Assembly: GCA_963769885.1 (NCBI GenBank)
Contig: CAVYNH010000006.1
Location: 160,001 to 224,000, forward strand
Length of the DNA stretch: 64,000 nt
From: Methanobacteriota archaeon
GTDB taxonomy: Archaea > Thermoplasmatota > E2 > DHVEG-1
Direction: 5' to 3'
The notes under the pieces are model-generated. The model ran no database searches, was not told the DNA's origin, and saw nothing but the letters and a program-made list of their open reading frames with translations. Numbering within the stretch: the first letter of the stretch is position 1; each line of letters begins with the position of its first letter. Made by a program: the position numbers and the translations under genes. This document shows positions 19,118 to 22,187 of this stretch, one piece after another.

Positions 19118-19564
19118 TTAATAGCTGCTACCTTGGGTCCCAAGGAGGATCTCGAGTTCTGTGATGTGCTCTTGTTCCTCCATGAGGACATGTCGGATGT
19201 CGTGCTCAAGGAGGTGGTCGTAATACCCTTTTCCTTTCTCCTTTTTCAGCTCCTCTAGAATAATCCGGTACGTATCTACGGCGACTTTTTCGTCCTTCAA
19301 GTTTTGCTCAAGAATCTGCTTTATGTTTTTTGCCGGATGCGGTGGGCTGATCTCCATGCTTGGGATGCCGCCCAGTGCGCCGATGAGCGTTCGGAATTTC
19401 TCCTGATGCCCTTTCTCATCGTCGGCGATTTCTTTCAGTCTGGCGATAATGGGTTCAGCGTTGATGCCCTCAACAATTTCAGCATGGCTCAAATACTGAG
19501 TATAGGCCGCGTGCTCTAATTCAAGCGCATGGTTGAGCAATTCTAGGATCTTTTGCTTGGTCAT
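19118..19564 (-). CDS. Ferritin-like diiron protein (bacterioferritin/rubrerythrin fold)
   Basis: LELE..QY..DEKGH..DEK..EEQEH diiron pattern. Confidence 0.8.
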   Translation of the reverse strand: MTKQKILELLNHALELEHAAYTQYLSHAEIVEGINAEPIIARLKEIADDEKGHQEKFRTLIGALGGIPSMEISPPHPAKNIKQILEQNLKDEKVAVDTYRIILEELKKEKGKGYYDHLLEHDIRHVLMEEQEHITELEILLGTQGSSY

Positions 19565-19790
19565 GGTAGAAGATACCTCCGATGTTGCTATTTATTTGAC
19601 ATTTATAAAGGTTTATTTTATCGTCCGGTTTTTTGAATAATAAACGGCAGTGAAGAGAGCAGGTTTTCCCGCTCCATAAGAGAGAAAAACAGCAATGTGA
19701 AAATATTTTGGTTCTATTTCCTATTCCCTTTTTAGCTGTCAAGGGGAAGGGGAAGCCTTAAATAGAGTACTGTCATTAACAATCGTTAAT

Positions 19791-19859
19791 TGCCCGGCGA
19801 TTGGTTCTCCAATCCGCCCGGCACTAACGCTAGGAGATGTAAACCTAAGTGAGGGGGCA
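19791..19859 (+). ncRNA. Candidate structured small RNA (three-way junction), family unknown
   Basis: TTAAATA box at 19758-64 about 26 nt upstream; stems TGCCC/GGGCA, GGCG-ATTGG/CCAAT-C-CGCC, CACT/AGTG, TAGG/CCTA; pyrimidine-rich tract downstream. Confidence 0.55.
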
Positions 19860-19950
19860 TGTTTTGCATCCCATCCTTTCCTCCTCTCCTCATCAATAAA
19901 AAGAAACCCCCATTTGGTTTTACATACTCCTAACAATTTTCCCCTTGACT

Positions 19951-20577
19951 ATGACGCTCGACAACCTTCTCCATCGCATCGCACAACTCACACAAGACAA
20001 CGTCCGTGAGACGGTCAGCGACCGCATCACCTCGTTTCACACATTCCAAACCAAGCCAGACAACGCCGTCTTCCTCGAACTCTGCTTCTGCCTCCTCACC
20101 GCCCACTGCCGCGCTGAACACTGCCACGCCATCCAACAAACCCTAGGCCCCCTCTTCCTTCATGGCACCACCCGAGAAATCGAGCACGAGCTACACGCCC
20201 ACCACTACCGCTTTCCACCCCGCGCCGCCCACATCGTCGCCGCCAGGCAGTACAAAGACGGCCTCACTAAACGACTCCGCAACCTCTCCCATGACGACCG
20301 CCGCCGCTGGCTCGTCGACACCATCCCCGGCCTCGGCCTCAAAGAAGCCAGCCACTTTCTCAGAAACATCGGCTACGACGACTACGCGATCATCGACGCC
20401 CACATCCTCCGCATCCTCGACTACTACCAGATCATCCCCGCGTTCCGCAGCCTCACAACCAACCACTACCTTCAGATTGAAGAGGCCCTCAACGACATCG
20501 CTACTAAGGCAGGCCTCAGTCTCGCCGAACTCGACCTCTACCTCTGGTACCTCGACACCGGAATCATCATAAAATAA
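19951..20577 (+). CDS. ogg: 8-oxoguanine DNA glycosylase/AP lyase (Ogg2 type)
   Basis: ELCFCLLTA, PGLGLKEASHFLRNIG, AIIDAHILR, ELDLYLWY, C-terminal Lys. Confidence 0.9.
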   Translation: MTLDNLLHRIAQLTQDNVRETVSDRITSFHTFQTKPDNAVFLELCFCLLTAHCRAEHCHAIQQTLGPLFLHGTTREIEHELHAHHYRFPPRAAHIVAARQYKDGLTKRLRNLSHDDRRRWLVDTIPGLGLKEASHFLRNIGYDDYAIIDAHILRILDYYQIIPAFRSLTTNHYLQIEEALNDIATKAGLSLAELDLYLWYLDTGIIIK

Positions 20578-20640
20578 AAGAATCGCACGCCAAAAAAAAC
20601 CGGCGTGAGCCACAACAATCGTTGTTAGACTTAAAAAATC

Positions 20641-20808
20641 TTAGTCACTAATCGCCTTCACCGGGCACTCGTCCACACACGTCGCACAATCAATGCACGT
20701 ATCCGGGTTCACCGTCGCCTTCTCGTCGACCTTGATCGCCTCGACGGGGCACGCGGTCGCACAGGCGCCACACCCAGTGCACAGTTCCTTGTTCACAACT
20801 GCTACCAT
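20641..20808 (-). CDS. 2[4Fe-4S] ferredoxin
   Basis: Two CxxCxxCxxxCP motifs; GGAGGT RBS before ATG 20808. Confidence 0.93.
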   Translation of the reverse strand: MVAVVNKELCTGCGACATACPVEAIKVDEKATVNPDTCIDCATCVDECPVKAISD

Positions 20809-20990
20809 AGGAGAATCGAACCTCCGGGGCACCAGATACAGCTACCCCTTATAATAGCCTTTCCCCACCCCCACCGAGCACACTCCTTCGAGACCCAATG
20901 CGGCGACGGCGAAGTCATCCCCCGCACCCTCACCCTGCAGATCCCCCATTTTGTCTAGAATAGAAATCTTTCTATGGTACGTCCCGTTAC

Positions 20991-22187
20991 ATGCCTGGGT
21001 ATTTAAGGGAGAGAACACGCGGTATGGAAGAAGAGGTTAAGGCACGCATCTACTCGGGAACGCTCTTTGGGTTCTTTCAGACCCTCTTGATGGCCTTCGC
21101 CATGCTCATCCCCACTTTCTACTTCCGCTCCCTCGGCCTCTCCCTTGCCGCCTACGCCGTGCTCCTTTCCATCGGCGATATCGCATCCTTCATCATGAAA
21201 CCGGCCCTCGGATGGCTCACCGACCGACACGGAGAACGACTATTCATGATGCTCGGCGGCATCCTCTTCATCATCAGCCTCTTCCTCATCGGACAGACCA
21301 CGGACCTCCTCCTCATCGCCATCCTCAAGATCGTCTCCGGCGTCGCCAGCGCCCTCGTCTTCATCCTCATCCTCATCTACTCGCTACGAATGGTCAAAGA
21401 AAAACCAGAACGCAAAATCGGCGCCTTCGCCGGTGTCTACAACCTCGGCTGGGTCGTCGGACTCAGCGGCCTCTTCATCCTCGGCATCCTCTACACCACC
21501 TACCCCATCAAGGAAGCATTCTACCTCATTCTCATCGTCGGTATCATCTGGATCCTGCTTATGTTCCGATTCGCCAAACATTACGAAAGCGTGGTCTCCG
21601 TCAAGCTCACCTTTTCCCACCTCAAAAAAATCCCCACACTCATCGTCTTCAAAAGCATGGACCTCGCCATGTTCTCCGCCTTTCTCTTCTACCTCATCTA
21701 CAACGCCCCCAACACCGCCCTCTCCCTGCCCAAGACCACGCTTGTGGTCATCGTTGAAACCCTCCTCTTCGCCGTCTCCATCTACCTTGTCGGCAGGATC
21801 TCCACGCCACTGCTTCGCCGGTACTGGGTCCCCCTCTGCATCACGTTCCACCTCCTCGCCGCCATTGTCATGCTTTTCGCGGTTATGATAAATCAATACT
21901 ATCTCTACTTCCTCGTCGCCATCTTCATCGGCATCGCGGGCGGCTTCATCGACATCTGGATCTACACCCGCATCAGCGAACACTACGAACCCAAGGAAAA
22001 AGGCATCATCGTCGGAACCCTCGGCTGGAGCTACAACCTCGCCACGATCCTCGGCGCCAACGTCCCCGTCCTCATGACACTCCTCAACCTCAACGTCTTC
22101 ACCGCCCTCTTCGTCTTCCCCATCGTTATGCTCCTCACCTACATCGTCTTTATAGGAGCCGCACGAAGGACCCACCTCACCGCTTAG
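20991..22187 (+). CDS. MFS transporter
   Basis: About 12 TM helices, GWLTDRHGER motif A; start may be 21024. Confidence 0.85.
   Translation: MPGYLRERTRGMEEEVKARIYSGTLFGFFQTLLMAFAMLIPTFYFRSLGLSLAAYAVLLSIGDIASFIMKPALGWLTDRHGERLFMMLGGILFIISLFLIGQTTDLLLIAILKIVSGVASALVFILILIYSLRMVKEKPERKIGAFAGVYNLGWVVGLSGLFILGILYTTYPIKEAFYLILIVGIIWILLMFRFAKHYESVVSVKLTFSHLKKIPTLIVFKSMDLAMFSAFLFYLIYNAPNTALSLPKTTLVVIVETLLFAVSIYLVGRISTPLLRRYWVPLCITFHLLAAIVMLFAVMINQYYLYFLVAIFIGIAGGFIDIWIYTRISEHYEPKEKGIIVGTLGWSYNLATILGANVPVLMTLLNLNVFTALFVFPIVMLLTYIVFIGAARRTHLTA

Follow-up and report, generated by a model that had tools for sequence, protein, structure and literature searches.

A predicted small RNA family with an invariant pyrimidine-rich loop upstream of ogg in uncultured sediment Thermoplasmatota

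The window examined here is the whole 64,000-nt stretch (positions 160,001 to 224,000) of contig CAVYNH010000006.1, from an archaeon of the phylum Thermoplasmatota (assembly GCA_963769885.1). The region of interest, read directly from the sequence, is the gap between a gene for a ferritin/Dps-like protein (window positions 19118-19564, minus strand) and the 8-oxoguanine DNA glycosylase gene ogg, which starts with an ATG at 19951. Positions 19757-19940 of this gap are a predicted non-coding RNA gene, here termed C/U-loop RNA, that surpasses in length, and differs in fold from, the RNA of ~70 nt described for this site in a first-pass annotation. The predicted RNA belongs to an uncatalogued RNA family whose members are restricted to a single family of uncultured sediment Thermoplasmatota. 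Every family member carries a nearly invariant pyrimidine block, which lies in the large loop enclosed by a long imperfect hairpin, and the stem of this hairpin covaries. The RNA may be a repressor-controlled small RNA (sRNA) whose function is to mask translation initiation regions, with some transcripts reading through into ogg.

The conserved hairpin and its invariant loop

In the window, the hairpin formed by 19831-56 and 19907-32 was predicted to fold with a free energy of −31.2 kcal/mol (z −3.5), and its loop carries AUCCCAUCCUUUCCUCCUCUCCUCA at 19868-92, a block identical to the family consensus CAUCCUUUCCUCCUCUCCUCA. Across the family, the imperfect hairpin comprises 22 to 27 bp and encloses a loop of 45 to 55 nt; its arms vary by locus yet stay paired. 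BLAST analyses of positions 19730-19960 against 60 relatives identified the pyrimidine tract, and not the GC-rich hairpin upstream of it, as the conserved part, with the block sharing 97 to 100% identity in more than 20 genera while its flanks diverge. Fifteen columns were invariant across 50 block sequences from more than 20 genera. The block was unpaired in nearly all single-sequence minimum-energy folds (∼55 homologues), and a U run of 5 to 8 precedes it in all three subfamilies of C/U-loop RNA that could be distinguished. The features of the locus, in window coordinates, are as follows.

19741-19757, + strand: purine-rich run at the position of a B recognition element (BRE), adjoining the TATA box; putative BRE
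19758-19764, + strand: TATA box TTAAATA; family consensus TTTAAATA or TTTATATA
19776-19789, no strand assigned: palindrome TTAACAATCGTTAA, a putative operator; consensus TTAACAATTGTTAA; roughly −11 to +3 of the predicted transcription start
19791-19823, + strand: 5′ GC hairpin; −19.6 kcal/mol, z −4.0, 0 of 200 shuffles fold as well
19818-19952, + strand: extent of the match to covariance model R1; 89.4 bits, E value 2.5e−18, sole match in the genome
19831-19856, + strand: 5′ arm of the conserved hairpin, purine-rich, beginning GGAGAUGUAAA; from the pair list, fold z and covariation
19857-19906, + strand: apical loop of ∼50 nt with very few G; U run (19862-65), invariant block and A-rich tail
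19868-19892, + strand: invariant pyrimidine block ATCCCATCCTTTCCTCCTCTCCTCA; its complement reads GGAGG-AAAGG-ATG
19907-19932, + strand: 3′ arm of the conserved hairpin, pyrimidine-rich; from the pair list, fold z and covariation
19937-19940, + strand: short T run TTTT, located where relatives have a T5-T10 tract; putative terminator
19951-20577, + strand: ogg, 8-oxoguanine DNA glycosylase/lyase; Pfam Ogg-HhH, E value 1.5e−48; NCBIfam NF002305, 199 bits (cut-off 183)

Using RNAalifold on a plain MAFFT alignment, in which the variable-length arms were misaligned, no pairs were predicted. This alignment was replaced by setting the stem by hand, building the covariance model R1 and realigning the sequences to it. 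The primary set consisted of 58 distinct copies and the secondary set of 41 copies, 40 of which derived from loci not included in the seed alignment. Fitting to R1 biases both alignments toward the structure, and slid-register controls were run on the same alignments, with the following results.

Cells paired: primary set, 79% versus 64% when shuffled; secondary set, 80.5% versus 58.8% when shuffled
Pairs with a compensatory change: primary set, 21 of 21; secondary set, 21 of 21
Double-change cells: primary set, 201 versus 72 ± 8 when shuffled and 35 to 64 when slid; secondary set, 194 versus 60 ± 8 when shuffled
Covariation score: primary set, 0.44 versus 0.08 to 0.14 when slid; secondary set, 0.55 versus 0.10 to 0.18 when slid

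The slid-register controls argue that the covariation signal of the predicted long stem is real. Within the stem, G-U pairs outnumbered A-C mismatches (200 versus 98), and this excess, together with the TATA box upstream and the T run downstream, places the predicted RNA on the + strand. Covarying homologues, which the first-pass annotation had named as a check, were found (about 100), and what they support is the hairpin 19831-56/19907-32 and not the four-helix fold proposed there.

An exact 18-mer of the block gave 73 matches in data holding one genome per species. Approximately 45 of these were in metagenome-assembled genomes of Thermoplasmatota ("Thermoplasmatales archaeon SG8-52-3" and "SM1-50" among them), the hairpin flanks being present in nearly all, and ∼27 were in unrelated, mostly bacterial records without the flanks, a number near the ∼17 expected by chance. 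A second block-like stretch in this genome, GCATCCCTTCCTCCTCTCCTC, lies outside the window downstream of a TTTAAATC box (G000:C7:226755-226775, locus L193). It was rejected as a family member, given that it does not fold (z +0.3) and is missed by R1, and could represent either a copy that has decayed or a match arising by chance.

Coding and triplex accounts of the conserved sequence were also rejected. A small open reading frame (ORF) on the minus strand (GGAGG-N5-ATG) would encode nonconserved peptides of 3 to 16 amino acids, and the covariation of the arms is that of an RNA. On the plus strand, the ATG of a leader peptide (MFCIPSFPPLL...) is present only in this genus, and a triplex of the loop with the purine arm is at odds with arms that vary around an invariant block. 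On inspection alone, the internal loops showed no evident K-turn motif.

Model R1 matched 90 of 107 genomes of the host's own family in a sample of the order and none of the 10 genomes from two other families of that order; when this sample was limited to its 43 high-quality genomes, 39 were positive. In an even sample of the class, the matches were found in 58 of 67 genomes of the same family, and 83 genomes from nine other families had none. Copy number ranged from one to seven per genome, with a single copy in the genome studied here. An Rfam 15 scan of the whole window, which covered C/D and H/ACA sRNA families as well, matched only four tRNAs, all of them elsewhere. At an E value of ≤10, three chance-level matches of 14 to 16 bits were obtained, none over the hairpin, and at ≤0.01 there was no match in five representative loci of the three subfamilies. 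ARAGORN found no tRNA at the site. Hence, the first-pass statements that the element is not a tRNA and cannot be assigned to a known family both stand. Literature searches identified nothing relevant on Thermoprofundales RNA motifs or archaeal 8-oxoguanine riboswitches.

Promoter, operator and candidate regulator

In a promoter line-up of ∼58 loci, nearly all primary copies shared the same order of elements, namely, a BRE-like sequence (cgaaagt), a TATA-like box (TTTAAATA or TTTATATA), a fixed distance of 11 nt and the palindrome TTAACAATTGTTAA. The window has this layout, with TTAAATA, an 11-nt spacer and the palindrome with one mismatch. Across the 99 non-redundant matches, a TATA-like box was present in 71 and the palindrome (≤1 mismatch, ≤135 nt upstream) in 69. 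With the usual geometry of archaeal promoters, transcription is predicted to start near 19787-19790, at the end of the palindrome. The palindrome overlaps the predicted start and therefore sits where archaeal repressors act. In minimal forms of the element (L019, L084 and subfamily 2), the hairpin starts directly after the operator; eight copies of subfamily 2 have a TATA box, a 6-nt spacer and the palindrome, followed at once by the hairpin. The purine run at 19741-57, TTAAATA at 19758-64, the GC-rich hairpin and the pyrimidine tract after 19860 had all been listed in the first-pass annotation and are present in the sequence, and its proposal of a structured non-coding RNA with its own archaeal promoter gains support from the conserved TATA box, the operator and the covarying stem.

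With up to one mismatch allowed, the palindrome occurs at only four sites in the 2.09-Mb assembly. A divergent XRE-type helix-turn-helix (HTH) protein of 110 to 115 amino acids is encoded next to the RNA in many relatives (>30). The orthologue in this genome (115 amino acids) lies on another contig (G000:C7:98332-98679, minus strand; L192:333-680), and the palindrome TTAACGATTGTTAA is found 32 nt upstream of its ATG. From these arrangements we infer that the XRE-type protein binds the palindrome. The protein family is wider than the RNA and is also present in families f4 and f10 of the class. The 115-amino-acid protein carries Cys motifs. Further palindromes were identified at G000:C4:341210 and G000:C6:653441, 11 nt before a gene for an HtrA-like PDZ serine protease and 31 nt before an HdrC-like CCG-domain gene, respectively, and these two genes are possibly in the same regulon.

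Between the operator and the conserved hairpin lies a variable insert, which is absent (0 nt) from L019 and L084, ∼40 nt long in this genus and 55 to 85 nt long elsewhere; the inserts of other genera (0 to 85 nt) are unrelated. In the window this position is occupied by the 5′ GC hairpin, the P2 helix of the first-pass fold. P2 is indeed stable, but it represents a genus-specific insert rather than the conserved core, and at a locus of the same genus (L003) a different hairpin (z −3.2) takes its place. Longer inserts hold the extra conserved words GAGGTGGT and AGATTA(ACA) (loci L015, L016, L018, L021, L026 and L092), and a TTACAA-N14-TTGTAA palindrome occurs in some of these loci. In most loci, the word TTAACA is found again 8 to 12 nt ahead of the hairpin. 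A helix pairing TTAACA with the operator's right half, for which one apparent compensatory change was seen in the window, was judged unlikely: the operator half is probably not transcribed, since the predicted start lies at the end of the palindrome, and locus L074 contradicts the pairing.

Proposed masking of translation initiation regions and competing explanations

Our favored reading, to which we assign a probability of about 0.5, is that C/U-loop RNA is a repressor-controlled small RNA masking translation initiation regions, with read-through into ogg. The XRE-type HTH regulator would bind the palindrome over the start site and repress transcription. Once transcribed, most of the RNA would end at the T run to give a small RNA of 100 to 150 nt, and some transcripts would continue through the T run and carry ogg. 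The hairpin would keep the loop single-stranded, so that its CCUCC motifs and CAU could anneal to the Shine-Dalgarno (SD) sequence and AUG of target mRNAs and thereby block translation initiation. The signal could be oxidative or DNA damage, as suggested by the neighboring ogg, Dps/ferritin-like, Fur, RPA-like and Endo_dU genes.

The sequence of the loop is consistent with this mechanism. A CAU sits 5 to 7 nt 5′ of the first CCUCC motif, such that the complement of the loop reads GGAGG, 5 to 7 nt, AUG in all three subfamilies. The arrangement is CAU-CUUUU-CCUCC in subfamily 2 and CAU-CCUUUCA-CCUCC in subfamily 3, where the loop includes UCACCUCCU, identical to the 3′ end of the 16S rRNA of this genome (GGAUCACCUCCU). 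SD motifs are enriched in this genome 9 to 17 nt upstream of long ORFs (∼333 versus ∼47 in the control; 1230 ORFs). The loop thus offers an unpaired complement of both the SD sequence and the start codon, as expected of an sRNA directed against ribosome-binding sites (RBS). Promoter and T-run motifs, as would delimit a discrete transcript, are also present. The TTTT at 19937-40 is probably a weak archaeal terminator. Among the 99 non-redundant copies of the family, 50 have a run of five or more T no farther than 18 nt from the stem, and 63 have one of four or more.

Several observations weigh against this reading. The expression, start and end of the RNA are deduced from sequence, and the T run in the window has only 4 T. 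A genome-wide search for complementary sites and a duplex scan of initiation regions were swamped by spurious G-rich antisense ORFs and yielded no credible target. The coding strand of ogg and its neighbors (window 19940-21000) is strongly C-rich, with a GC skew of about −0.3 to −0.55, and a C-rich coding strand produces many such antisense ORFs, which confound complementarity scans. The ogg gene of this genome has no SD sequence, leaving nothing there to mask. The 25-nt invariant block exceeds what anti-SD pairing needs and hints at a specific unseen partner, and in the secondary copies CAU is less conserved than CCUCC. Finally, a gene on the same strand starts within 160 nt in 66 of the 99 copies, and many loci lack the space for ogg to have a promoter of its own; both observations also fit a cis-acting leader.

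Such a cis-acting 5′ leader or attenuator is the main rival, and we consider it unlikely yet serious. Here, the hairpin and U tract would limit transcription into ogg or other downstream genes, a trans-acting factor (protein or RNA) would read the loop and set read-through or translation, and the short RNA would be a by-product. Besides the same-strand genes noted above, ogg follows on the same strand in at least 36 related loci and across all promoter variants, an arrangement that also bears out the link to ogg drawn in the first-pass annotation. In the window, ogg starts 19 nt past the stem. At type-A loci, found in the best-represented genus, an SD-led ogg lies 35 to 39 nt after a T5-T8 run, and because no second TATA box is evident there, the predicted ogg transcript of these loci must be made by read-through. 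In type-B loci, which occur in other genera and whose insert separating operator from hairpin is longer, the T run merges into a TTTAAATA-like box, which could be ogg's own promoter and in that case would speak against a leader. Other downstream genes recur, including those for an ArsP-type permease (six times), dihydroorotate dehydrogenase (DHODH), a Fur-family regulator, an RPA-like OB-fold protein and C25 peptidases, the last of these secreted. Endo_dU, phytoene/squalene synthase and beta-eliminating lyase genes were also identified downstream. The ArsP_1-type permease following some copies (L011, L012, L019, L074 and L084) has a Cys-rich N terminus (DPICGM...HYFCS) resembling a metal-binding domain, and NCBIfam places this permease near Cu/Zn efflux transporters, below the family cut-off.

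The family as a whole is less easily accommodated by a leader. In eight subfamily-2 copies (L152, L156, L158, L159, L163, L164, L169 and L183), the stop codon of a convergent Peptidase_C25 gene lies 5 to 20 nt after the hairpin, and because the end of this gene follows directly, these copies cannot be mRNA leaders. Another subfamily (L166, L172, L174, L186 and L189) precedes Peptidase_C25 genes, and its promoter differs and lacks the TTAACAATTGTTAA palindrome. A position in the 5′ untranslated region, as expected of a riboswitch or attenuator, is therefore not shared by all members. No conserved antiterminator pairing was found by inspection. In addition, archaeal RNA polymerase terminates at oligo-T and does not need a hairpin, and termination for this reason leaves the covarying stem unexplained. 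The riboswitch and ribozyme options raised in the first-pass annotation are likewise unsupported: only one helix has support, some members are not 5′ leaders, and the residues that are conserved fall within a loop that is unstructured and nearly devoid of G, not within a folded pocket. For the pseudoknot or switch pairings suggested there, no conserved alternative pairing was seen (by inspection; no formal pseudoknot search was run).

Ranking next is a protein-binding or decoy RNA, which we regard as improbable. The U run and C/U block would form a high-affinity site for an RNA-binding protein, such as an Sm-like (Lsm) protein, a KH-domain protein or a termination factor, and the RNA would titrate or recruit this protein instead of pairing with mRNAs. 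The 5 to 8 U preceding the block in every subfamily would suit such a factor, as would 25 nt that are invariant across genera, beyond what seed pairing needs, and a lack of any convincing complementary RNA in the genome or 16S rRNA. Set against this, no protein emerged as a candidate or was seen to co-occur, and CCUCC repeats with a CAU at the SD-to-AUG distance are what base pairing with initiation regions predicts.

A more speculative possibility, to which we give little weight, is that the RNA mimics the 3′ end of 16S rRNA. After oxidative or DNA damage, the XRE-type repressor would be released and loop copies would become abundant, soaking up SD sites and favoring leaderless or SD-less mRNAs, including read-through ogg. 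If this were true, one promoter would give both a global translational brake and a repair enzyme that escapes it. Direct pairing of the block with 16S rRNA was examined separately and rejected (−24 kcal/mol versus a background of −22.6 ± 5.4).

It is very improbable that the conserved sequence acts at the DNA level, as a small mobile element, a cruciform, a protein-binding site or an oxidation-prone G-rich template tract that senses damage. Of the 25 nt of the block, 15 are G on the template strand, GG and GGG runs included, directly upstream of an 8-oxoguanine repair gene, and some relatives have several copies per genome. However, repetitive extragenic palindromes and miniature inverted-repeat transposable elements have many copies with conserved terminal inverted repeats, and this genome has a single copy, whereas across copies of the family the loop is conserved and the stems vary, the opposite of terminal inverted repeats. 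The 2-to-1 excess of G-U over A-C favors a one-strand RNA over a cruciform, mere G-richness does not require exact sequence conservation, and the element keeps a fixed position with respect to the TATA box, the operator and the T run.

The stand-alone four-helix RNA of ∼70 nt (19791-19859) put forward in the first-pass annotation, a ribozyme or aptamer with pseudoknot options, is already contradicted by comparative data. The complementary words it listed do exist, among them TGCCC and GGGCA at 19791-95 and 19855-59, and P2 is stable. Nevertheless, the 69-nt stretch folds no better than many shuffled versions of itself (z −1.1; 29 of 200 shuffles fold as well), P1, P3 and P4 are missing from its minimum-energy fold, and P2 is not conserved beyond the genus. 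P3, P4 and the 3′ half of P1 also clash with the covariation-supported hairpin, as they use segment 19831-56, the 5′ arm that pairs with 19907-32. The 3′ boundary at 19895 would split this hairpin in two, and the pyrimidine tract, described there as following the RNA, is the invariant core of the element and not a trailer. There was no Rfam match to the purine riboswitch family, which includes the known 8-oxoguanine riboswitches (PMC10556655).

Relation to known RNAs and significance

The closest parallels to the favored masking mechanism are found in bacteria and in another archaeal phylum. The streptococcal cia-dependent small RNAs (csRNAs) have been proposed to block translation initiation and, like C/U-loop RNA, occur as several related copies per genome, have a conserved unpaired anti-SD sequence and CAU anti-start codon at matching distance, and are transcribed from a promoter under one transcription factor, as is proposed for C/U-loop RNA (PMC3091779). 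They differ in being bacterial and in having the unpaired stretch between two stem-loops rather than inside one long hairpin, and the two share no sequence relation or Rfam match. Furthermore, csRNAs are controlled by a two-component response regulator, in contrast to the candidate XRE-type repressor site over the start of C/U-loop RNA, and they are not tied to ogg, as C/U-loop RNA is.

In Methanosarcina mazei, sRNA41 and sRNA154 are archaeal intergenic sRNAs whose loops carry anti-RBS sequences that mask the RBS and repress translation (PMC5867862). C/U-loop RNA resembles them in its archaeal origin, its intergenic location and an anti-RBS sequence in a loop. They come from a different phylum and have no detectable sequence or structural homology to it; they respond to nitrogen and lack the invariant 25-nt loop, conserved operator and fixed place before a repair gene seen in C/U-loop RNA.

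The 8-oxoguanine riboswitches are variants of the guanine-I riboswitch, bacterial purine aptamers built on a three-helix junction, and like C/U-loop RNA are located upstream of genes handling oxidative guanine damage (PMC10556655). A purine aptamer is unlike a conserved, unstructured, G-poor loop, and the purine riboswitch model did not match. Unlike these riboswitches, some members of the C/U-loop family are not leaders.

To our knowledge, only a handful of archaeal regulatory RNAs are understood, with uncultured lineages almost unrepresented among them. The present analysis adds an uncatalogued RNA family with an operator and a probable regulator, three subfamilies, restriction to a single family of archaea and a read-through layout. 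The family provides a clean case for study, being defined by comparison, with strong covariation and a loop unchanged across dozens of genera, as well as a recognizable operator, a candidate regulator often encoded alongside and physical coupling to an enzyme that removes 8-oxoguanine. Model R1 also offers a means of annotating the RNA in over 100 genomes where the region is now blank. If the loop does mask ribosome-binding sites, C/U-loop RNA would be an archaeal counterpart of the streptococcal csRNAs and would link damage or redox signaling to the control of translation in abundant sediment archaea.

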